From Acidimicrobiia bacterium (GTDB lineage Bacteria; Actinomycetota; Acidimicrobiia; Acidimicrobiales; Aldehydirespiratoraceae), in the NCBI GenBank assembly GCA_022821685.1, contig JAJEDD010000034.1:25811-89810 (forward strand): 64,000 bases of DNA, read 5' to 3'. The first letter of the stretch is position 1; each line of letters opens with the position of its first letter. The notes under the pieces are model-generated. The model was not told the DNA's origin and did not search any database. It worked only from the letters and a program-made list of their open reading frames with translations. The position numbers and the translations under genes are program-made. This document shows, piece after piece, positions 3,396-38,820 of this stretch.

Positions 3396-4688
3396 TCAGC
3401 GCTGCGAGGCCTTCAGGGCCCGCTCCAAGTCCTCGATGATGTCGCGGGGATCCTCCAGCCCGACCGAGAGCCGCACCAGGTCCTCGCCCACCCCGGCCGC
3501 GGCCAGATCGGCGGCCGACATCTGCTGGTGGGTGGTGCTGGCCGGGTGGATCACCAGCGTCTTGGCGTCGCCCACGTTGGCCAGATGGGAGGCCAGGCGG
3601 ACCGCAGCTATGAACTTGGCCCCCGCGTCGCGGCCCCCGGCGATGCCGAAGCTCAAGATGGCCCCGGTCCCCCTCGGGTAGAGCCGGCCGGCCAGGCCAT
3701 AGTCGGGATGGTCGGGCATGGACGGGTACTTGACCCAGGTCACTGCGTCGTTGGCGTCCAGCGCCTCAACCACCGCCTCGGTGTTGGACACGTGGCGCTG
3801 CATCCTCAGCGGCAGCGTCTCGACGCCCTGAAGGATCTGGAAGGCGTTGGCCGGGCTCATGCAGGCGCCGAAGTCGCGCAGCCCCTCGGCCCGGGCCCGG
3901 CTGATGAAGGCGCTGGGGCCGAACTCGTCGCTGAAGCTGATGCCGTGGTAGCCGGCGTAGGGCTCGGTGATGGTTCCGAACAGCCCCGAGGCGTCCCAGT
4001 CGAAGTGGCCGCCGTCTACGAGCATGCCGCCGAGGGCCACCCCGTGGCCGCCCAGGAACTTGGTGGCCGAGTGCATCACAATGTCGGCGCCGTGCTCGAA
4101 GGGCCGGATCAGGTAGGGGGTGGAGAAGGTGGCGTCCACCATCAGCGGCAGGCGGTGCCGGTGGGCGACGTCGGCCACCGCGGCGATGTCGAGGACCTCG
4201 ATGCCGGGATTGCCGAGGGTCTCGGCGAAGACGAGGCGGGTCTTGCCGCCGATGGCGGCCTCGAACTCATCGGGCCGGCGGGGGTCCACGAGCGTGGCGG
4301 TGATGCCGAACCGGGGCAGGGTCAGGTTGAGCATGTTGTGGGTGCCGCCGTAGATGTTGCGACTGGCCACGATGTGTCCGCCGGTGTCCATCAGGGTGGC
4401 CACGGCCAGGAAGAAGGCGGCCTGCCCGCTGGCGGTGGCCACCGCGCCCACCCCGCCCTCGAGCGCCGCCACCCGCTCCTCGAGCACGGCCACGGTGGGA
4501 TTGGAGATCCGGGAATAGATGTGGCCGGGGATCTCGAGGTTGAACAGCCCGGCCGCGTGGTCGGTGTCCTCGAAGGAGTATGAGGTGGTGAAGTAGATGG
4601 GCACGGCCCTGGCCCCGGTGGCGGGGTCGCTGTGCTGGCCGGCGTGGAGGCTGAGGGTGTCGAAGCGAAGAAAGTCAGGCTCTACCAC
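3396..4688 (-). CDS. metY: O-acetylhomoserine/O-acetylserine sulfhydrylase (PLP-dependent, Cys/Met metabolism family)
   Basis: [10 protein letters not shown]..., [28 protein letters not shown] (PLP-lysine region); 430 aa; GTG start at 4688. Confidence 0.9.
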
Positions 4689-5134: not shown

Positions 5135-5163
5135 ATTGTCTCGGCCACGGGGGTGAATTGCAA
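5135..5163 (-). promoter_or_regulatory. candidate sigma-70-type promoter (TTGCAA-17 nt-GACAAT) upstream of the small ORF and metY
   Basis: Minus strand reads ccTTGCAAttcacccccgtggccgaGACAATctcgg. The hexamers have a 17-nt spacer and lie about 50 nt upstream of the ATG at 5085. Confidence 0.3.
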
Positions 5164-5195
5164 GGAATTGGAGGTCAGAGTGGGTGTGATATCGG

Positions 5196-6914: not shown

Positions 6915-7086
6915 GGTCACGCCATCGTCGGAAGCGGCCACCGGGACATCCGGGGCCCGCGGTCGTAGCAGCGTTCGCGCTCTGCCATGATCACCCTCCG
7001 GAACTTGGGCCGGGAGCGTAGGAGCCCCGGGCCGTGCAACAATCGCGACCCTACCGCTGCCGATCACAGAACAGTGAGGCGCTGGC

Positions 7087-7524
7087 ATGAGCGAGAACCC
7101 CCGGTTGGAGCCAGACTCGCCGCCCTCGGGCCACTGCCTGTGCGGCGCGGTGAGCTACGAGGTGCACGGCCCGATCCGCCAGGTCTGGAACTGCCATTGC
7201 TGGCGCTGCCGCCGCTGGACCGGCCACTACATGGCCGGGTCGGGATGCAAGCGCTCCGACTTGAGGCTCCTGTCCGACGCCAGCCTCACATGGCACCACC
7301 CCGCCGACGATCCCAACGTGGCCTACGGCTTCTGCCGAGAATGCGGGAGCTCGCTGTTCTGGCAGGTAGCGGAGGGCCCACCTCGCCAGACCGACCACAT
7401 CGCCATATGCGCCGGCACCATGGACCTGCCCACCGGCCTGCACACCGAGTGGGCTATCTTCGTAGACGACGCCGCCGACTACCACACCCTCGACCCAAGC
7501 ATCGAATCCCACCACCGCGAATAG
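7087..7524 (+). CDS. GFA (glutathione-dependent formaldehyde-activating / CENP-V-like) family protein
   Basis: Cys-rich Zn motifs: [35 protein letters not shown]. Confidence 0.8.
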
Positions 7525-7531
7525 CCAGTCC

Positions 7532-7561
7532 AGTCGGTCGACGACGCGACGCCGACCGACT
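7532..7561. terminator. hairpin between convergent genes (candidate bidirectional terminator)
   Basis: agtcggtcg-12 nt-cgaccgact, a 9-bp perfect stem between stop 7524 (+) and stop 7574 (-). No U-tract. Confidence 0.35.
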
Positions 7562-7573
7562 CGCGACCCAGCA

Positions 7574-9475
7574 CTACAGGGGCGACATCGTGACGAACAG
7601 CGGCTGCTGTTCGGCAGTGCTCGCCGGTGACTGGGGCGATTCCGCTGACGGTGCTTGGGTGGCCTCAAGAAGTGCCTCGACGTCTTCAAGGCTGGACACA
7701 GGCAGGGCGCCTCGCTGCTGAAGGGGATCGTTGCCAGGACCTTCCCCGTCGCCTCGCCACACGGCGACCGGCCCGTAGCCGTGCTTGAGGGCTTCGACGG
7801 CGCCCGACCATGTACCCCCAGTCCCATCGTCGCTCGCTACAACCACCGTGAGCGCAGCCTGCGCATAGATGAGCTTGTTGCGACCCATGGCGTTGCCCGC
7901 GCTGAAGGGGGCACTGGGACTGTAGGGCGTGCACATGACCGTGCTGCCCTCGTACACGGCCCTCCGCACGTCGGGGCTCTTCAACTTGCGCGACAGCGCT
8001 TCGGCCAGCATGCCGACAACGGCTCCTCCGGCTTCGAAGGCGGCATCCATGGCGAGTTGGTCGACGCCTCGAGCACCGCCCGACGTGAGTGGCAGACCCC
8101 GACGTGCCGCGAGCCGAGCAACCTCTCTGGCAACCTCGCCCCCTGCTTGGGACACGTCGCGGCTCCCGACCACACCCAGCCCGGGCGCGTCGAGCAGTTC
8201 GAGCGCGCCAGCGGCGTGCACCAGCGGCGGGGCCTTGGCACGGAGCCGGTCTAGCCACGTACGCGGGTAGTGCTGATCGAACGCCGTGAGCGTCTTGATG
8301 CCTGACTGCTCCAACCGGTCTAGCTCGAAGGCAACCGCCGTGGCGCGGTCCATGAGCTCAGCAATGCGCTCGCCAAGATCCTCGGGCAGACCATGATCTC
8401 GCATGAGTTGATCCGCGCTCTGTCCGAGTAGCGGTCCTGGGTCCGCCTGTTGCCGTCCATCAGCGCGGATGAAATCGCGCAGGCTCCAGTACTCGGACGC
8501 CTTGAGTGGTCGCACCCCGTCAGCGCAGAGACGGCTTACGAGCAAGATCGTGGCCAGGGAGTCGTCGTGTCTCAACTGCCCGACCTCCCGACTGTGTCCG
8601 CCAAGGCGAACGGGAGAGATGCCTTGCGTCTGGAGCCAGCCCGAGACCCGCTCGGTGTCCGCGACCGTGAGGCAGTAGACGATGCCAGTGCCGGGCAACT
8701 CGTTGATCGCCGAGGCGAGCCACACGAGCCGTTCCGCCTGAATCGGCTTGTCCAGCGCGTGGAGCCGCAGGCCGCGGCGAGCAAGAGGGCCCCTCACTGG
8801 CACGAAGTCGGCTCCGAGTTGGGCAGTCACGTCATCCACCACCCGATCATTGGCAGTGGCGGTACAGCACAGCACTGGCACGCCGGTTGGCAGCAGATCG
8901 AGCACCCGCGCCAGCCGCCGATAATCGGGTCTGAAGTCATGGCCCCAGTCAGAAATGCAGTGGGCCTCATCGATCACGAGTAGTCCGCTTCTCCGGCCGA
9001 CGATGGGTAGCACCTCATCGCGGAATTGCCGGTTCGCCAGTCGCTCAGGCGAGATCAGCAGCACGTCAACCTCGTCGTCGTTGATCCGACCTTCAACCTC
9101 GCTCCACTCTTCCTTGTTGGAGCTATTGATGGTCTCGGCACGGACGCCCAGCCGTTCAGCAGCTTCAATCTGGTTGCGCATGAGCGCAAGCAGCGGCGAC
9201 ACGAGCAGCGTCGGCCCAAGCCCCTGGTCCCGGAGCAGCCGAGTGGCGATGAAGTACACCGCGCTCTTGCCCCAGCCGGTCCGTTGCACCAGCAGCACCC
9301 GGCCCCGATCACCGGCCAACGCCAGGATCGCTTCGAGTTGGTCAGTCCGGAACTGGGCCGCGAGATCGCCGGTCAGCCGCTGGAGCAGCCCCAACGCCTC
9401 ATTCGCAAGCTCAGATTCGGAGCTCATCGGGCCCGGACTGTACGCACCGCCTGTGACAACGCTGCGCCCCCACAT
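7574..9475 (-). CDS. chimeric ORF: RecQ-like helicase N-terminal lobe fused to a complete DprA/Smf-like DNA-processing domain
   Basis: N-terminal half: QRTGWGKSAVYF (motif I), VIDEAHCISDWGHDFRPDYRRL (DEAH), CCTATA (III), GIVYCLTVADTERVSGWLQTQGIS (IV). There it stops resembling RecQ, with no YHAG or motifs V/VI in any frame. C-terminal half: DQHYPRTWL, GVVGSRDVS, LTSGGARGVDQLAMDAA, FSAGNAMGRNKLIY (DprA Rossmann fold). Confidence 0.7.
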   Translation of the reverse strand: MWGRSVVTGGAYSPGPMSSESELANEALGLLQRLTGDLAAQFRTDQLEAILALAGDRGRVLLVQRTGWGKSAVYFIATRLLRDQGLGPTLLVSPLLALMRNQIEAAERLGVRAETINSSNKEEWSEVEGRINDDEVDVLLISPERLANRQFRDEVLPIVGRRSGLLVIDEAHCISDWGHDFRPDYRRLARVLDLLPTGVPVLCCTATANDRVVDDVTAQLGADFVPVRGPLARRGLRLHALDKPIQAERLVWLASAINELPGTGIVYCLTVADTERVSGWLQTQGISPVRLGGHSREVGQLRHDDSLATILLVSRLCADGVRPLKASEYWSLRDFIRADGRQQADPGPLLGQSADQLMRDHGLPEDLGERIAELMDRATAVAFELDRLEQSGIKTLTAFDQHYPRTWLDRLRAKAPPLVHAAGALELLDAPGLGVVGSRDVSQAGGEVAREVARLAARRGLPLTSGGARGVDQLAMDAAFEAGGAVVGMLAEALSRKLKSPDVRRAVYEGSTVMCTPYSPSAPFSAGNAMGRNKLIYAQAALTVVVASDDGTGGTWSGAVEALKHGYGPVAVWRGDGEGPGNDPLQQRGALPVSSLEDVEALLEATQAPSAESPQSPASTAEQQPLFVTMSPL

Positions 9476-9491
9476 CCTCTGTCGTCTGGTT

Positions 9492-9511
9492 TATCCAATA
9501 TAAATTGGATA
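9492..9511. promoter_or_regulatory. palindromic operator candidate in an AT-rich divergent promoter
   Basis: TATCCAAT-ataa-ATTGGATA, perfect 8-bp arms, between the RecQ::DprA start (9475, -) and the HTH gene start (9522, +). Confidence 0.5.
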
Positions 9512-9521
9512 CCGTGAACGA

Positions 9522-9809
9522 GTGCCCGGCCGCGCGGACATGCAGACCGACCAGCGCGCTGAGCGCCTAAGGGTCATGCTGTTCGACGGAATCGAGGACG
9601 CCGAAGAGTCCGTCGCAAGCATTGCGAGGCGGTGTGACCTCGGCCATGAGACCATCCGACGGCTCTATCGAAATCCGGGAACCCGTCTGAGGACCGGCCC
9701 ATCCTTCTTCGTCGTAGCAGCCATTGCTCGCGCCCGTGGGCTGTCGCTCGACTCCCTAGCCGAGCGTGTCATGCAGGAACCGGCTGGACAGGAAGTCGTC
9801 GGTCAGTGA
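9522..9809 (+). CDS. XRE/Cro-like helix-turn-helix DNA-binding protein
   Basis: ESVASIARRCDLGHETIRRLYRN...FFVVAAIARARGLSLDSLAE. The start could be ATG 9540 (MQTDQ). Confidence 0.6.
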   Translation: MPGRADMQTDQRAERLRVMLFDGIEDAEESVASIARRCDLGHETIRRLYRNPGTRLRTGPSFFVVAAIARARGLSLDSLAERVMQEPAGQEVVGQ

Positions 9810-10470
9810 CACTTCCCCGACCGGCACGGACAACAAGGGGGAGGATGTGCTGGGCTCACCCCTAGAGGTAGCGCTTGCTTCGTTTTCTCGCTTGACAGGA
9901 CTTCCTGTCGTCCAATTCTCGATCGATGGGTCAGAAATGCTTGGAGCGTTGGAGATCTGCCCATCCGAGCACGAGCGCCGAAGGCAGGCCGGCGTTGGAG
10001 GCATCACCTCCACGGCATTGCTGCACGGCCTCTGGCTGTTGCCCCCGCATGGACCAACGCCGTCGGGGATGCTCCCTGAAATCAAGGTCCAGCGGTTGCG
10101 CGCCGCTCCACACGCTGCCGTCGAGACGGACGAGGGGTTTGAATTGACCTACTCGCCGCCAGGGATGTTGCGGTCGGTCGCCTTGCGCAGCCGGAGCGTG
10201 GAGCGAGCCGTGGATCGAGCAGCTCGGTTCACCCCGATCGTCGAGAGATTCGTGTTGGTTGACGAGACCCAGCAGCCTGTCGCATCGCCCACCGAGTGCG
10301 TAGCCCGAGAGTGGGGGGTCGGAATCATCTCTCTGTGCTGCGGGGATTCCCCGGAGGTCCTGGTACCTGCAAGCCCCGCGGAGACCGGCATCCCTAGCGT
10401 GTATCGCTGGTGGGTGGCCGAGCTTGCCTACGAGCGCTATCTCTACGAGAGCACCCAGCCGGTCAGCTGA
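9766..10470 (+). CDS. hypothetical protein (start uncertain; GTG 9847 possible)
   Basis: Long ORF in an accessory, more AT-rich region. It overlaps the HTH gene end and is convergent with 10443..11465. No family recognised; ends ...SVYRWWVAELAYERYLYES. Confidence 0.4.
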   Translation: MSCRNRLDRKSSVSDTSPTGTDNKGEDVLGSPLEVALASFSRLTGLPVVQFSIDGSEMLGALEICPSEHERRRQAGVGGITSTALLHGLWLLPPHGPTPSGMLPEIKVQRLRAAPHAAVETDEGFELTYSPPGMLRSVALRSRSVERAVDRAARFTPIVERFVLVDETQQPVASPTECVAREWGVGIISLCCGDSPEVLVPASPAETGIPSVYRWWVAELAYERYLYESTQPVS

Positions 10471-11465
10471 GCCTTTGGCTTTTCAGGACCGTTGAAACCG
10501 GCACGGTCGTACCACTTGGTGGCGATTCGACATTGGCCGAGGAACTCGGAAGCTCGATCTGACTTCGGAGCGTTGATTACGTAGTCCGCCAGATCTGCAA
10601 GCGCGTTCATGTTGTGCCAGTCGGCATCGAGATCGGCATCAAGGAACCGAGCGAGCGACTGCCCATGGCAGCACGGGAGGTTACAGACAATGGCCTCCCC
10701 TGCGGCCGTCCAGCCTGCGACACCGCTGGCCAAGAACCAGTCGAGCAGCGGGCGAACGAATAGGCGAGCCGATTGCCCCGGCCGGCGCCAGGCTCCCTTG
10801 ACAGGGGGTGCGTAGTGACGTGTCGAGGTCGTCAGTCCGACCGACGCGTGCCGGGCACCGAATGCCAAGGCTCCGATGGCCCCGTGATCGCTTCGCAGCA
10901 GTGACACCCGGTTGACCCGCTGAGCCACACGACGCAGACCCTGAACGGCGCCGGGTTCGGAGAGTGGGTCACCTCGATGGGCGAACACGAGTGCGACAGG
11001 CTGGTTCGCCGACATCAGCGTGTCGATCACGACTTCAGCCTTCCTGGCGATCCAGCGGGCATCGATAGCGAACAGCATCGTTGCCTCCAAGCCCGCGGCA
11101 ATTCGGCTCTGCTCCTGCACGGTCCCAATGAACTCGATGTTGTCGCTCCGGTCCCAGGCCAAGAACGCACCCGGCAAGAGTGGGCAGACTGCCCCAATCG
11201 CACGCTGTGCGCCTACCCAGCCGTCGCGAGCAGGCAAGTCCATGTCTGCGTATCCCATCCCGTCGAACAGCACGGAACAGTCGAGTCCCAAGTCGCGCAG
11301 TTTTCTGACGATCTCGGGTCCTCCAGGCCCTGCGACCGTGATAGCGCCAGCCAGATCAGCCGCAGCTGCAGCTATCTGGGGATCCCGATTACATCGGGCC
11401 GCCGTCAAGTAGAACGAGAACGTTGGTCTTGGGGCCTCCACGAGCCACTCTGCCATCGCCATCAC
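10443..11465 (-). CDS. uncharacterised 340-aa protein, third gene of the higB/higA-immA operon
   Basis: ATGA start/stop overlap with the upstream gene at 11462..11465. Regular beta/alpha alternation (FSFYLTA, AITVAG, SVLFDGMGY, AFLAWD, MLFAIDARW, VALVFAH, VSLLRSD, ALAFGA) and a C-terminal Cys/His cluster CNLPCCHG...WH. No family confidently recognised. Confidence 0.6.
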   Translation of the reverse strand: MMAMAEWLVEAPRPTFSFYLTAARCNRDPQIAAAAADLAGAITVAGPGGPEIVRKLRDLGLDCSVLFDGMGYADMDLPARDGWVGAQRAIGAVCPLLPGAFLAWDRSDNIEFIGTVQEQSRIAAGLEATMLFAIDARWIARKAEVVIDTLMSANQPVALVFAHRGDPLSEPGAVQGLRRVAQRVNRVSLLRSDHGAIGALAFGARHASVGLTTSTRHYAPPVKGAWRRPGQSARLFVRPLLDWFLASGVAGWTAAGEAIVCNLPCCHGQSLARFLDADLDADWHNMNALADLADYVINAPKSDRASEFLGQCRIATKWYDRAGFNGPEKPKAQLTGWVLS

Positions 11466-12547
11466 GACATCAACCCCGCATCTTGAAGGTCAGGGCGGAC
11501 CTTGGGGATGTGAGCACGGTGAAGGCTCCAATTGTCAGTGAGCCGCTGGATCTGTCCGATGACCACACTCGGATGCACCTGATGATCCGTCGCGGTCTGC
11601 GCGATTTCGGAAACCGTGGTCGACCTCATCATCAGCTTGCCGGGAAACAGCCAGGTTGACGCTTGCTCGTCGGCAGCGATCTCGTCAGGATGGGTCTTGG
11701 TCACCGTGAGGTCATCGTCAACAATGGCGCCGGACTGCGGGGTGATGTGACCGAGCGTCAGATGCGCGCACTCATGGAGCAAGGTGAACAACAAGCTGTC
11801 GAACCGGTTGCCGCGCGTCGTTAGACCGATCGCCGGACGACCGTCACTGAGGAAGGTAACTGCACCGTCGAGCTTGCCCCCTCGAAGCCCCTCGCAAAAG
11901 ACGAGGCAGACACCACACTCACCAAGAAGAGCGGGAAGCCGCTGGAGTTCACCAGGTCCGTTCCGCAGCAGGCGCGATAGGCGCTGCGCGAGCGCTCCGA
12001 GAGCCTCGACATCGAAGCGTTCAACCTGCTGGAGCTCGGCCATACGACGTACGCGGCCGAGCCATGCGGACTGCCGGAGCGTGATCGGTTCGGTGCGGTT
12101 GGAGCGTCTCGCAGCCACGGCGAACGCCGGCCTCTCTTCAAGAGACTCGATCTCGAGAAGATGGCATACTGCTGACTCTGTTTCATCGAGATCGCTCGTG
12201 TCGGGGATCCACCCCCGCGACCGCACTTGAGCCAGCGGAATCGCGCTGCGTAGGAGCGCCCGGCGAGCCACCGGCGCGAGATCGACACGGTCCGCCGCCG
12301 TGCGGTGCTGGTGCAAGCGATACCGCGTCTGAAGGTTCAGCCACACCTCGGGCGTCGTGCCGAGCGCCGCGGAGATGGCCATCGCTGTCTCAGCAGTGAT
12401 CTCCTTCTTGGCGTTGAGGATTTCCGACACAGCCTGGATGGGCCGGCCGATGATCTCCGAGAACTCAGTCACAGTCCAGCCTCGCTCCTCCAGTTCGTCA
12501 CGGAGGTACTCGCCGGGCGGGAATGCGTGAGCGGGAGTCTGGGCCAT
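11462..12547 (-). CDS. HigA-like XRE HTH antitoxin domain fused to an ImmA/IrrE-type zinc metallopeptidase domain
   Basis: N-terminus: PPGEYLRDELEERGWTVTEFSEIIGRPIQAVSEILNAKKEITAETAMAISAALGTTPEVWLNLQ (HigA/VapI type). C-terminus: LLHECAHLTLGH (HExxH). I prefer ATG 12547, preceded by GGGAGAAAG, over the ORF-track start at 12580. Confidence 0.75.
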   Translation of the reverse strand: MAQTPAHAFPPGEYLRDELEERGWTVTEFSEIIGRPIQAVSEILNAKKEITAETAMAISAALGTTPEVWLNLQTRYRLHQHRTAADRVDLAPVARRALLRSAIPLAQVRSRGWIPDTSDLDETESAVCHLLEIESLEERPAFAVAARRSNRTEPITLRQSAWLGRVRRMAELQQVERFDVEALGALAQRLSRLLRNGPGELQRLPALLGECGVCLVFCEGLRGGKLDGAVTFLSDGRPAIGLTTRGNRFDSLLFTLLHECAHLTLGHITPQSGAIVDDDLTVTKTHPDEIAADEQASTWLFPGKLMMRSTTVSEIAQTATDHQVHPSVVIGQIQRLTDNWSLHRAHIPKVRPDLQDAGLMS

Positions 12548-12563
12548 GTTCGTCGCTTTCTCC

Positions 12564-12863
12564 CTAGTAGTGGTTGGCAACCTCGACCACGATCAGCAGG
12601 CGTCCTTGGGCGTCTGACTCAACCCGCAGGATGAGTCGCCACTGACGGTTGAGCCGGATCGAGTGCTGCCCGGCGCGGCCCCCGCGAAGCTTCTCGAAGT
12701 GCAGTGCCTTGTAGTTGCGCAGGTCGGTCTCGGACTCGGCTTCTTCCAGGAACGCGACCTTCTTGCGGAACGCTCTGGTGACTTCCGGCCCGAACCTGGG
12801 CAAGGCGAAGTCGTGCTCCTCATGCAGCCGTCGGAGAGCATCGTCCTCGAATCGGATTCGCAT
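12564..12863 (-). CDS. higB: HigB-type (RelE/ParE superfamily, plasmid-maintenance-killer family) toxin
   Basis: MRIRFEDDALRRL...FRKKVAFLEEAESETDLRNYKALHFEKLRGGRAGQHSIRLNRQWRLIL. 99 aa, immediately upstream of the HigA-like gene. Confidence 0.7.
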   Translation of the reverse strand: MRIRFEDDALRRLHEEHDFALPRFGPEVTRAFRKKVAFLEEAESETDLRNYKALHFEKLRGGRAGQHSIRLNRQWRLILRVESDAQGRLLIVVEVANHY

Positions 12864-12865
12864 AT

Positions 12866-12892
12866 GTTCACACCTTCACCCTATAGGTGAAC
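12866..12892. promoter_or_regulatory. operator/promoter candidate upstream of higB
   Basis: GTTCACaccTTCACCctataGGTGAAC, a nested inverted and direct TTCAC half-site arrangement plus a TATAGG -10-like hexamer, 3 nt upstream of the higB ATG. Confidence 0.45.
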
Positions 12893-13034
12893 ACTACTAG
12901 ATGCAAGCACTGGTCCAGCGTGTCCTTGGTTGGTGCCGTGTGGTCCACCGCTATCGACAGAACACGATGGTGATTCGATCAGCACCACCCATTGGAGGAC
13001 AACTGCCTAGCCGACCCGCAAGCGATTCTGGCGG

Positions 13035-13385
13035 ATGGGCTGGGAGCAGCGCCAGACCCTTGTCCACAGGGCCGACGACTTGTTCCGGCTCCAGCACCGC
13101 TCGCTGATGCGACTTACCGCACTTGCAGAGTTGCACCAAGTGCTTCATGAGGGCGGTCATCCCACCCCGGCTCGTACCAGTGAATCGCCTCGACAGGAGT
13201 CCGGGTGGTTGGAGCATGCCAACGCTCTAGCCGATTGGGCGCAGCAGTGGCTGGCTTCAAAGGCCAGCGGCGAGGATCGTCTCACGGGCCTGGCCGCGGC
13301 GATTGAGGACCACCTGGGCGTGGACGTGATGGCAGAGAGCTTGGGCGAAGATGCGCCGCTGGGCCTGTCAATCACAGATCCGTGA
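13035..13385 (+). pseudogene. possible gene remnant at the island edge (hypothetical)
   Basis: 116-aa ORF. Its tail ...AAIEDHLGVDVMAESLGEDAPLGLSITDP resembles the region just before the core of ImmA/IrrE-type peptidases, but it stops where prmA begins. Weak call. Confidence 0.2.
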
Positions 13386-14212
13386 GGCTGTCGCGCTGCG
13401 ACACTGGGGTGATGATTGTGGTGGCTACCACTGTCGGCGAGTTGGCTGGGGTTCTTGGGCGGCTCCGGGATGTTGGTGTGCGCTCGTTGGAGGTGGTGGA
13501 GCCTGGGGCTGCTCGGCGAGTGGTGGTGGCGGCACTTGACGACGAAGCTGGCGCAGCCGGGCTGGCGGCGATGCTTCGAGCCGAGGGCCTGGCGGCGGTG
13601 ACGAAGCCTCAGGGCGGCGCGGCGCTGGAAAGGTGGGTCAGCGACACTCGACCGGTCTGCTTCGGTGGCCGGCTCACGGTTTGTCCGGCCTGGTCTGAGC
13701 ATGATCGTCGCGATTGGCCGGGGCTGATCGAGTTGGGCTTCGGCGGGTTCGGCAACGGCCGCCATCCCACCACCCGTCAGATGATCGAGGTGCTGCTGGA
13801 GCGGATCACTGGTGGCGAGCGGGTTCTCGATGTCGGCTGCGGCAGCGGGATTCTGGGGTTGTGCGCCCTGCGGCTGGACGCGGCCCGGGTCGTGGCGGTC
13901 GACGTCGCCGACGAGGCGGTCCAAGCCGCGAGGCGCAACGCGGCCATCAACTCCGTGGACTCCCAGCTGGAAGCGACGCTTGCACCTCTCGCGGAAGTCG
14001 AGGGCCGATTCGACGCTGTGGTGGCCAACATCGCCAGAGCGGGCGTCGCGGCGCTTGCCGAGGAACTGGTGTCGCACACTGCGCCGGGCGGCTGGCTCGC
14101 CGTCGGCGGCATCTCGCCGTCACAGTGCTCCCAAGCAGCCGGCTTTCTGAGCCCCCTAGTCGAAGTGGAGCGCCGAACCGAAGGCGAATGGTCCACCCTC
14201 GTGCTCAGCTGA
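13382..14212 (+). CDS. prmA: ribosomal protein L11 methyltransferase-like SAM-dependent methyltransferase
   Basis: LTVCPAWSEHD, FGNGRHPTTRQ, RVLDVGCGSGILGL, VAVDVADEAVQAARRNAAIN. Start uncertain (GTG 13382 or an internal Met). Confidence 0.7.
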   Translation: MRLSRCDTGVMIVVATTVGELAGVLGRLRDVGVRSLEVVEPGAARRVVVAALDDEAGAAGLAAMLRAEGLAAVTKPQGGAALERWVSDTRPVCFGGRLTVCPAWSEHDRRDWPGLIELGFGGFGNGRHPTTRQMIEVLLERITGGERVLDVGCGSGILGLCALRLDAARVVAVDVADEAVQAARRNAAINSVDSQLEATLAPLAEVEGRFDAVVANIARAGVAALAEELVSHTAPGGWLAVGGISPSQCSQAAGFLSPLVEVERRTEGEWSTLVLS

Positions 14213-16955: not shown

Positions 16956-17096
16956 TAAGAGGGAGCGCAAATAGGTGAGAGCCGGTCGCGTCGCAGCGGG
17001 GTCATTCCCGCTCTTGTTCGCTGCGCTCACGGGCCGCTCGGGCCACGGCCTCGCCCGTATGGGCCGGAATCGCTCACCTATTCGCTCGGCCTCTAA
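16956..17096 (+). mobile_element. MITE-like repeat, copy C (reference full-length copy, ~141 bp)
   Basis: 5' end TAAGAGGGAGCGCAAATAGGTGAG and 3' end CTCACCTATTCGCTCGGCCTCTAA form imperfect ~25-bp terminal inverted repeats. Internal hairpins: CGCAGCG...CGCTGCG, GCGGG...CCCGC, ACGGGC...GCCCGT. Confidence 0.7.
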
Positions 17097-29255: not shown

Positions 29256-30050
29256 TCACGACGCCAGAGCCTCTAGCAGCGCGCTCAAATCGGTGTGAGC
29301 CTGGTGCGTGGCAGCGGAGTCATTCCCGCTCTTGTTCGCTGCGCTCACGGGCCGCTCGAGCCACGGCCTCGCCCGTGTGGGCCGGATTCGCTCACCTATT
29401 CGCTCGGCCTCCAGGCCGTCGGGGGCGAGTCCGAGGTGGCGCCGCAGCAGGGCCCGGGCCTCGACGGTGCGCCCGACCCTCACCAATTCGAGGAGCCCGC
29501 CGTCGAGCGCGTCCTCCCAGCCGGGCAGTTCCGAGGTGCCGAACGCGGCTTTGGCGTCGCAGCGGGTCTCGGCCAGCAGTTCCAGCAGGGTGGCGTAGCC
29601 CGAGTCGATCTCTCGCTCGATCCGCTGTCGGAGCCAGCGGGCCAGCGCGGGGCTGCGCCCGCCGGTGGAGACCGCCACCTGCAGGTCGCCGCGCCGGGCC
29701 ACCGACGGCAGCGTCAAGGTGCAGTTGTCCGGATCGTCGGCCGAGTTGACGAAGACGTTGGCCGCTTCGCAGTCCCGAGCCACCATGGCGTTGACCGCCG
29801 GGTCGCTGGTGGCCGTCACCACCAGCCGGTAGGCGCCCGACTCACCGGGTTGGTAGGCCCGCCGGTGCCAGACCACCTCGGGATTCTCGGCAATGGCAGA
29901 GACCGCGGCAGGGGCGATCACCGTCACGCAGGCACCGGCCTGCAGCAGCCCTTCCACCTTGCGGGCCGCGACCGGGCCGCCGCCCACAACCAGGACGCGA
30001 TGCCCGGCGAGGCACAGGTTCACGGGATAGGACGGTGGCGTGCTGGTCAT
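29256..30050 (-). CDS. siroheme synthase N-terminal-domain-like protein (precorrin-2 dehydrogenase / sirohydrochlorin ferrochelatase), with a C-terminal extension read from a MITE
   Basis: LAGHRVLVVGGGPVAARKVEGLL (NAD fold) and VSTGGRSPALARWLRQRIE. Start at ATG 30050 (MTSTPPSYPV). The last ~52 codons (LEAERIGERIRPTRARPWLERPVSAANKSGND...) are the MITE sequence read in frame. Confidence 0.75.
   Translation of the reverse strand: MTSTPPSYPVNLCLAGHRVLVVGGGPVAARKVEGLLQAGACVTVIAPAAVSAIAENPEVVWHRRAYQPGESGAYRLVVTATSDPAVNAMVARDCEAANVFVNSADDPDNCTLTLPSVARRGDLQVAVSTGGRSPALARWLRQRIEREIDSGYATLLELLAETRCDAKAAFGTSELPGWEDALDGGLLELVRVGRTVEARALLRRHLGLAPDGLEAERIGERIRPTRARPWLERPVSAANKSGNDSAATHQAHTDLSALLEALAS
29274..29411 (+). 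mobile_element. MITE-like repeat, copy D (full length)
   Basis: ...gcgcgctcaaatcggtgtgagcctggtgcgtggcagcggagtcattcccgctcttgttcgctgcgctcacgggccgctcgagccacggcctcgcccgtgtgggccggattcgctcacctattcgctcggcctc. Confidence 0.7.
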
Positions 30051-38294: not shown

Positions 38295-38669
38295 TTGGCT
38301 ATCCGTGTTTTTCACCGCGACGAGCCCAGCCTGTACGCGCCCATCATCTCCAGCGACGCCCGGTTCGTAGTGTGGCCGGGGGTCGGCGCTGAGACGGCCA
38401 ACATGAACTACGTCGTGCTCGAACCGGGCGAGGAGAACGTCCCCCATACCCACGACGAATCCGAGGACACGATCTTCTGCCTCGAGGGCCGGGGCACGGT
38501 GAGCGACCTCACCAACGACGCCCGGCTCGAGTTCGAGGCCGGCCAGGTCATCCATGTGCCCGCCGGCGTGGAGCACGCGGTCATGGCCGACCGGGGCGAG
38601 CGGATCGTCAGCATCGGCGGTCCCTGCCCGCCCGACTGGAACCTGCTGCGCTTTCTCGGATTCGCATGA
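38295..38669 (+). CDS. cupin-domain protein
   Basis: TTG start; VPHTHDESEDTIFCLEGRG (cupin motif 1, HxH..E..G) and VIHVPAGVEHAV (motif 2). Confidence 0.7.
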   Translation: MAIRVFHRDEPSLYAPIISSDARFVVWPGVGAETANMNYVVLEPGEENVPHTHDESEDTIFCLEGRGTVSDLTNDARLEFEAGQVIHVPAGVEHAVMADRGERIVSIGGPCPPDWNLLRFLGFA

Positions 38670-38807
38670 GAGGCCGAGCGGATAGGCGAGCGATTCCGGC
38701 CCATACGGGCGAGGCCGTGGCCCGAGCGGCCCGTGAGCGCAGCGAACAAGAGCGGGGAATACCCCGCCGTGACGAGACAGGCCTTCATCCATTTGCGCGC
38801 CCTCTAA
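38668..38807 (-). mobile_element. MITE-like repeat, copy E (full length, inverted orientation)
   Basis: The reverse complement aligns end to end with copy C (ttagagggcgcgcaaatggatgaaggcc...ccgctcggcctc). It abuts the cupin TGA and ends 13 nt before the next gene's GTG. Confidence 0.7.
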
Positions 38808-38820
38808 GGGCGACCCGCGA

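Follow-up and report, generated by a model that had tools for sequence, protein, structure and literature searches.

Whether the single 633-codon open reading frame (ORF) found in a stretch of Acidimicrobiia DNA (contig JAJEDD010000034.1, 64,000 nucleotides, hereafter the window) encodes a new protein architecture, with a RecQ-like helicase part followed by a DprA-like part, or is the scar of a deletion, is the question raised by this locus. Both explanations had been proposed in an earlier reading of the letters without database searches (hereafter the sequence-only reading). Our analysis indicates that the ORF is, with high probability, what a 1,217-bp deletion in the toxin gene psyrT has left of an operon of the PsyrTA (RqlHI) type, a toxin-antitoxin and anti-phage system. 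It is a case of ordinary gene decay and not a new protein family, the parent PsyrTA system, for which Sberro 2013 is reportedly among the sources, being already known.

The ORF (7574..9475, minus strand, 633 aa) starts with ATG and is open throughout. Pfam placed a DEAD/ResIII helicase lobe at residues 42-215 (DEAD itself at 44-215) and the DNA_processg_A (DprA) and SLOG cluster4 domains at residues 388-566, and the translation holds TGWGKS, DEAH, GIVYCLTVADTERVSGWLQTQGIS, DQHYP, GVVGSRDVS, SGGARGVD and GRNKLIY; the ORF, the two-part organization and the motifs quoted in the sequence-only reading were thus all retrieved. By PADLOC, residues 25-288 were assigned to PsyrT (E 7.8e-116, profile positions 6-268 of 689) and residues 305-607 to PsyrA (E 1e-82, profile positions 6-310 of 398). 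Weaker PADLOC matches were obtained with several DpdF profiles, down to 6e-59, for the N-terminal lobe, and with ShosA (1.7e-22) for the antitoxin half.

On the contrary, neither half reached the scores of the families first evoked. The NCBIfam recQ equivalog TIGR01389 scored 163 bits versus a cut-off of 640, with the alignment ending at model position 252, and the RecQ-family subfamily model TIGR00614 scored 146 bits versus 220; the full set of features proper to the RecQ family (SF2 motifs I-VI, Zn-binding part, RQC and a score above cut-off) is not present. The dprA equivalog TIGR00732 scored 73.7 bits versus 191, so that the DprA transformation-protein equivalog is not recognized and only the domain-level match to Pfam DNA_processg_A (PF02481) passes its gathering score (100.5 versus 29.6 bits). 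Since the TIGR01389 and TIGR00732 scores lie far under their cut-offs, the halves are not bona fide RecQ or DprA. The "complete DprA" of the sequence-only reading is a complete DprA-like gene of the PsyrA family.

The following parts were distinguished within the ORF:
9428..9475, minus strand: upstream in-frame extension of 16 codons, included by gene callers and corresponding to the psyrT 5' leader in relatives.
8615..9427, minus strand: psyrT (rqlH) remnant, codons 1-271, with lobe 1 of the RecQ-like SF2 helicase (motifs I-III), continued by ~30 residues from the start of lobe 2; PADLOC PsyrT.
8614..8617, minus strand: deletion junction TCT/CCC, where 1,217 bp of psyrT are missing.
8572..8616, minus strand: retained psyrT 3' end, orphaned, which in its original frame translates as LPFALADTVGRSGS followed by the stop (the intact orthologue P0004 ends in PFALADTAGRS).
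8584..8589, minus strand: Shine-Dalgarno-like GGGAGG, read directly, 8 nt before the psyrA TTG; L002 and L087 show the same layout.
7574..8575, minus strand: psyrA (rqlI-like), 333 codons from its native TTG plus stop, a complete DprA-like/SLOG antitoxin gene; PADLOC PsyrA 1e-82.

The relatives of the locus (numbered with L; individual proteins with P) show what the ORF derives from. Nearest genome records were metagenome-assembled genomes of Acidimicrobiales, including Ca. Aldehydirespirator and Ca. Poriferisodalis. In five Acidimicrobiales loci (L001, L002, L003, L004 and L006) psyrT (677-690 aa) and psyrA (333-370 aa) are separate genes, as in L001, from a 3.9-Mb genome (psyrT of 690 aa, then psyrA of 370 aa), and in L002, a 6.3-kb contig (677 aa, then 349 aa). 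In the gene calls of both, the psyrT stop and psyrA start overlap by 4 nt, an overlap also present in the closest relative, L087 (a 3.37-Mb contig at 123x coverage). The slot itself is recognizable from its flank:
7087..7524, plus strand: GFA-family gene (Pfam GFA, 8e-20), conserved chromosomal flank of the psyrTA slot.
The same GFA neighbour adjoins the psyrTA slot in L001, L002, L003, L006 and L087, and L001 also adjoins the same GMC-oxidoreductase gene as the window ORF; in L004 the upstream flank is collinear, but the GFA gene is unmatched. The comparison with relatives suggested by the sequence-only reading therefore returns separate psyrT and psyrA genes in the same slot.

Alignment of the window DNA with L001, L002 and L003 revealed a single 1,217-bp gap in psyrT between shared end points, with the window collinear with the relatives on either side; the gap versus L087 is 1,216 bp, L087 having its own 1-nt loss. 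The deletion falls wholly within psyrT and spans codons 272 to about 676 of 690, its left end being located after codon 271, which is S287 of the ORF (nt 8617-8615), and its right end 14 codons ahead of the psyrT stop. In intact orthologues Pfam recognizes DEAD (28-199), Helicase_C (242-338), RecQ_Zn (442-482) and phosphoribosyltransferase (PRTase, 595-676), the last three of which are held by the deleted part. Up to codon 271 the remnant shares 88-96% amino acid identity with intact 690-aa orthologues. A tblastn search with P0004 (690 aa) matched residues 16-305 only in the window, and residues 306-690 of this orthologue were found nowhere in the 64 kb, in any frame, in agreement with the former claim that the rest of the helicase is absent. 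Perfect microhomology at the junction extends over 1-2 nt only (CT or T), inside an imperfect ~11-nt similarity (CnGTT(C)GCCT), and the junction alignments to relatives showed no repeat flanking the deleted segment and able to collapse an assembly.

The junction also explains the open frame. As 1,217 equals 3x405+2, the deletion is out of frame and the frame shifts, thus bringing the toxin stub into the frame of the antitoxin. ORF residues 288-300 (nt 8614-8576), 13 codons reading PVRLGGHSREVGQ, come from the psyrT 3' end translated out of frame; the alternative-frame peptide GHSREVGQL also occurs in over-extended psyrA gene calls of intact loci (P0022 and P0055). The next residue, L301, is the TTG at 8575-8573, the same codon used as psyrA start in the L002 and L087 gene calls; it overlaps the old psyrT TGA (8574-8572), so that the TTGA stop/start remnant is kept at 8575-8572. 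The fused frame consequently reads PsyrT(1-271), 13 aa and PsyrA (333 aa). Hence the junction, formerly placed at about residue 295 (~nt 8590), has to be corrected, the helicase homology stopping at S287 and the DprA-like protein running from L301. About one in three random internal deletions would give this frame, therefore no selection for a fusion needs to be invoked: the "fusion" is a coincidence of frame. Moreover, psyrA keeps its own start codon and ribosome-binding site and therefore need not be made as a fusion.

At the other end of the ORF, psyrT relatives begin with MS(S/Y/D)ESELANEAL, which matches M17, and the DNA homology with the leaders of L087, L001 and L002 continues upstream of the ATG of those relatives. 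From this sequence comparison the true start is likely M17 (ATG 9427-9425), the first 16 codons being leader; ~70 nt of native psyrT leader are kept upstream of M17.

PsyrTA, which equals RqlHI, is a two-gene toxin-antitoxin system with a DprA-like antitoxin and a PRTase-bearing toxin, and defends against phage (bioRxiv 10.1101/2022.05.11.491447; Millman 2022). Its PADLOC profiles are the best for both halves of the ORF, the toxin-then-antitoxin order with an adjacent or overlapping stop/start is still recognizable in the TTGA remnant, the window locus lies in a toxin-antitoxin gene island and the orthologous loci of relatives hold the full two-gene system. The antitoxin is of the PsyrA family by its profile and by 95% identity to stand-alone PsyrA, but the toxin, which should carry both helicase lobes and the C-terminal PRTase, matches profile positions 6-268 of 689 only. 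It is reduced to 271 of 690 codons, without complete Helicase_C, Zn-binding part and PRTase, and is fused in frame to the antitoxin, so that the locus is a disabled copy rather than a working member.

Other known systems were less close. ShosTA (PMC11961720, PMC12961424) resembles the intact parent in having a PRTase toxin countered by a DprA-like partner, and the ShosA profile does match the antitoxin half, but the PsyrA match is far better and the toxin of the relatives is a RecQ-like helicase-PRTase, not ShosT. RecQ helicases align with the N-terminal lobe over motifs I-III and the start of IV; the ORF, however, is devoid of motifs V and VI, Zn-binding part, RQC and HRDC, and even the intact relatives are of the RqlH type with a PRTase tail, not RecQ proper. 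DprA/Smf of natural transformation shares the Pfam domain and the SLOG/Rossmann fold class, but the context here is a toxin-antitoxin operon and not a competence locus. DpdF, of the Dpd 7-deazaguanine DNA modification system, matches the N-terminal lobe less well than PsyrT does (NCBIfam model 79 versus 550 bits) and dpd genes are not nearby.

A SF2 ATPase site forms between both RecA-like lobes and needs motif VI. The stub has a single RecA-like lobe with only part of the other, and we infer, as did the sequence-only reading, that the helicase half is no motor on its own. The deletion took away what follows in lobe 2 (motifs IV-VI), together with the Zn-binding/winged-helix part and the PRTase domain at the C-terminus; the stub now reads 13 out-of-frame codons and continues through the TTG into psyrA, normally one frame away, giving one open frame. 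In E. coli RqlH, deletion of residues 509-690 (PRTase) or mutation of the PRPP pocket abolishes toxicity, and RqlI, which co-precipitates with the full-length protein, fails to do so with RqlH 1-509 (PMC4670107). By analogy with E. coli, where toxicity and RqlI binding map to the PRTase, the stub would be neither a helicase nor toxic, and loss of the PRTase domain would leave a disarmed module retaining an intact antitoxin, probably no longer a toxin-antitoxin or abortive-infection device. PsyrA may be made as a fusion, or alone from the kept ribosome-binding site and TTG, and would be the sole functional remainder if expressed.

To find proteins with the same architecture, protein and DNA collections were searched. 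Among the best 120 of 8,000 scored matches in 5.8 billion protein clusters, helicases (mostly ~690 aa) covered 41-61% of the query and DprA-like proteins (~350 aa) covered 52%, and none covered both halves. Likewise, 1.84 billion representatives were scanned exhaustively with HMMER, yielding 41,274 matches, the best 150 of which were inspected: each matches one half and none matches both. Six matches with two matched stretches or odd length were checked with Pfam and carried a helicase or a DprA domain, never both; three of the candidates with two matched stretches (P0174, P0180 and P0122) were rejected as true fusions, being helicase-only proteins. Across 84 related loci, among them 79 species-representative genomes, the psyrT DNA was essentially full length, with no fewer than 618 of 690 residues covered; truncation was confined to L085 and L086, which are copies of the window itself. 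In ~30 of the 84, psyrA lies directly downstream of psyrT. A helicase-lobe/DprA fusion family, which should be recognized from diverged homologues sharing both the domain order and the junction, was thus not found among the matches inspected in the cluster and representative searches or in the 84 loci, and the many full-length homologues by which the sequence-only reading would have recognized an established family did not appear.

Three shorter proteins (P0091, P0042 and P0014, 354-424 aa) were considered as further truncated toxins and discarded, the corresponding psyrT DNA, on 1-6x long-read contigs, being full length, split by frameshifts (probably sequencing errors) and without the 1.2-kb deletion. 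In L082-L084 (1-6x long-read contigs) psyrT appears as two ORFs of 354-424 and 284-308 aa over full-length DNA, probably because of frameshift errors of low-coverage long-read assembly. Such split calls raise the number of "truncated helicases" in protein databases.

Most Actinomycetota loci (L011-L081, from Streptomyces, Leifsonia, Solirubrobacterales and others) had a psyrT/rqlH-type helicase-PRTase and no psyrA within the fetched flank, and the psyrT and psyrA pair was present in Acidimicrobiia, cyanobacterial and deltaproteobacterial loci. The psyrT-only Actinomycetota loci agree with the survey of Russell & Mulvey, who reported RqlH alone in Gram-positives (PMC4670107).

As for the state of the two parts, psyrA has 95% amino acid identity to the stand-alone 333-aa P0272, keeps 50 of 50 invariant columns of a 24-sequence alignment and shows a ratio of non-synonymous to synonymous substitution rates (dN/dS) of 0.13 versus L087. 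Its 90% identity cluster has 15 other members of 259-333 aa, and its nearest homologues, from 90% identity upwards, are 333-aa proteins that stand alone; those with 95% identity begin at the same codon. The psyrT stub is free of secondary stops and frameshifts and its dN/dS is unchanged, and for this reason a recent deletion is the simplest reading.

Some observations nevertheless weigh against a plain dead remnant, or limit how far it can be pressed. The dN/dS of the stub, 0.10 versus L001 (pairwise 0.10-0.13), equals that of intact-intact pairs (0.11-0.14), and the lack of visible relaxation is as compatible with continuing constraint on the stub as with a recent deletion; lineage-specific non-synonymous/synonymous changes (4/2 in the window, 1/1 in L001, 5/5 in L002) are too few to test relaxation. 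Toxicity was mapped in the RqlH of E. coli, which is only distantly homologous. A promoter/terminator scan of 7400-9900 found no consensus sites. Finally, the three assemblies carrying the allele (see below) probably derive from one sample, so that the allele is not proven fixed.

Among the other explanations, the one that survives best accepts the deletion and adds selection: the toxin-less allele would be kept because PsyrA, alone or fused, acts as an orphan antitoxin against a second PsyrT or a ShosT-type PRTase toxin, resident in the genome or incoming (anti-addiction), toxin loss being recurrent in the clade. We regard it as possible but rather unlikely. In its favour, psyrA and the start signals of its own are fully preserved, RqlI-only genomes were reported at 1.2% (Russell & Mulvey 2015, PMC4670107), and two other toxin-less psyrA alleles occur in relatives. 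The first, at 14692-15840 of L001, is a second psyrA located beside GFA, whose ORF consists of a psyrT-type leader and "MSY" followed by psyrA, without psyrT; an intact psyrTA lies 4.6 kb away in the same genome. The second, at 2076-3392 of L088 (P0040, 438 aa), joins residues 1-83 of a HigA-type helix-turn-helix (HTH) protein in frame to PsyrA from residue 3; its HTH part is 60% identical to the 372-aa protein of the window, a RelE/ParE-like gene lies just upstream and no psyrT was found on the contig. On the other side, detection is biased to psyrA copies still open, the L088 contig has 4x coverage only, dN/dS mixes what happened before the deletion with what came after it, and tblastn found no second psyrT within the 64 kb.

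With the window, three toxin-less alleles are thus at hand, PsyrT(1-271)::PsyrA, PsyrT leader plus MSY::PsyrA (L001) and HigA-HTH(1-83)::PsyrA (L088), which suggests, short of proof, that toxin loss with antitoxin retention is recurrent. An additional inactivation might be represented by L087, where a 1-nt loss in a G5 run (~5160-5170) splits the psyrT ORF, being either a second independent event or a homopolymer sequencing error. The three alleles invite a broader conjecture, to which we give little credence, that in these Acidimicrobiales psyrT has been repeatedly deleted and psyrA kept expressed by capturing an upstream translation start, the orphan PsyrA having a selectable role. If this were true, orphan PsyrA could give immunity to the PRTase toxins of other PsyrTA/ShosTA copies or of incoming elements, or could alternatively be a DprA-like DNA-repair helper.

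The L001 locus shows further traces of rearrangement. A 22-codon fragment of a HigA-like HTH gene lies just upstream of its second psyrA, and a 136-bp copy of the GFA 3' end (12383-12518) is duplicated 3.5 kb away. Toxin-antitoxin cassettes (RES-Xre, Phd-PIN, PemK) thus seem to have been inserted one after another at the 3' end of GFA.

Very improbable, in our opinion, is an assembly artefact, i.e. a collapsed or chimeric contig at about 8615 with an intact psyrT in the real genome. The source is indeed a metagenome assembly, low-coverage long-read relatives show the split psyrT ORFs resembling sequencing errors described above, and a scan of JGI metagenome contigs for the junction, exact and with codon wobble, gave 0 matches, leaving the allele without an independent sighting. 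However, the identical 633-aa ORF occurs on three contigs (248 kb, 198 kb and 10 kb), presumably from different pipelines, the listed sources of the exact protein including NCBI, ENA and Logan, and the two contigs fetched, of 198 kb and 10 kb, match the window at 100% identity over 6.7-7.9 kb, junction included. Because the same DNA is present in three assemblies, an assembler-specific error is unlikely; in addition, no repeat flanks the deleted segment, the microhomology is minimal and both flanks are collinear with relatives.

A genuine functional fusion, in which a RecA-like lobe cooperates with the DprA/SLOG Rossmann domain in a new architecture, is hardly credible. In its favour, all 633 codons are open, with both Walker A (GWGKS) and DEAH preserved, and one gene is called in three assemblies. 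Against it, no homologue of this architecture was found among the matches inspected in the searches, the linker is the 3' end of a gene read out of frame, lobe 2 is interrupted past its first strand and helix rather than at a domain boundary, and the closest psyrA relatives stand alone. Of the two options of the sequence-only reading, a decaying recQ-dprA module produced by a deletion that fused adjacent genes is thus the one supported by the intact relatives, the gap and the frame at the junction, and the cooperating fusion receives no support.

Upstream of the remnant, the following features were identified:
9492..9511, strand not assigned: perfect palindrome TATCCAAT-ATAA-ATTGGATA with 8-nt arms, between the 633-aa ORF and the divergent HTH gene.
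9522..9809, plus strand: 95-aa HTH gene (HTH95), the divergent neighbour, with weak matches to Pfam HTH_38 and HTH_Tnp_ISL3 (E 0.003-0.009, under curated cut-offs).
9766-10470, plus strand: 234-aa protein, forming the second module with HTH95.
10443-11465, minus strand: 340-aa protein, first module.
11462-12580, minus strand: HigA-like HTH protein with M78/U49-like C-terminal part, first module; PADLOC PD-Lambda-2_B 3.5e-37.
12564-12863, minus strand: HigB-like toxin, first module.

These genes form a block (~9498-13381) of two modules, inserted relative to L087 between PrmA (13382-14212, plus strand) and psyrT. In L087 the block is absent and psyrT follows PrmA directly, the breakpoint being at ~9497; in L082 and L083 the same block is present at 77-79% identity. 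The HigB-like, HigA-like and 340-aa genes are joined by 4-nt overlaps, and the module of HTH95 and the 234-aa gene is convergent with them; no family was found for the 234-aa and 340-aa proteins in PADLOC, Pfam or NCBIfam. The divergent pairing with an HTH gene through a perfect palindrome, pointed out in the sequence-only reading, does exist but is not conserved. The L083 counterpart of the palindrome (3808-3827), a perfect 20-nt version, lies upstream of a homologous 97-aa HTH gene, 1.2 kb from psyrT, with a Phd-type toxin-antitoxin pair between the HTH gene/palindrome and psyrT. Because the palindrome accompanies the HTH gene in L083, and L087 lacks the entire block, a role of the HTH gene as psyrT regulator was rejected; the palindrome is probably the operator of the neighbouring HTH gene itself.

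The guanine-cytosine content, ~0.70 in the window, falls to 0.62-0.67 over 7001-13000, a dip which suggests an island and fits a horizontally acquired toxin-antitoxin/defence island. No tRNA gene was found in the 64 kb, and the Rfam scan of the window retrieved no family.

A dispersed GC-rich intergenic repeat of ~140 nt, with a nearly invariant core (…CCCGCTCTTGTTCGCTGCGCTCACGGGCCGCTCGGGCCACGGCCTCGCCCG…), was also observed:
16958-17095, plus strand: copy in the window.
29344-29368, plus strand: copy in the window, core only.
38669-38810, minus strand: copy in the window.
Further copies lie in relatives, at L002 5948-6086, L003 19446-19550 and L004 14216-14321. The L002 copy separates GFA from GMC; at the equivalent place (about 7062-7076) the window has none. 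The repeat could be a REP/MITE-like element or a small RNA; it matched no Rfam family and its predicted hairpins show little covariation.

For annotation, the locus should be recorded as a psyrT pseudogene and an intact psyrA rather than as a novel RecQ-DprA fusion, otherwise a false "new architecture" could enter the databases. Likewise, in counts of defence systems it is not a working PsyrTA, even though matches to the PsyrT and PsyrA profiles sit in one gene, without the toxic domain. For the biology of the family, the locus is a toxin-antitoxin/abortive-infection module that has lost its toxin and still holds an intact antitoxin, and the two further toxin-less psyrA alleles hint that this may be recurrent. 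A selected role for orphan PsyrA would be the mildly novel possibility; otherwise, the locus is a disabled copy of a known system.

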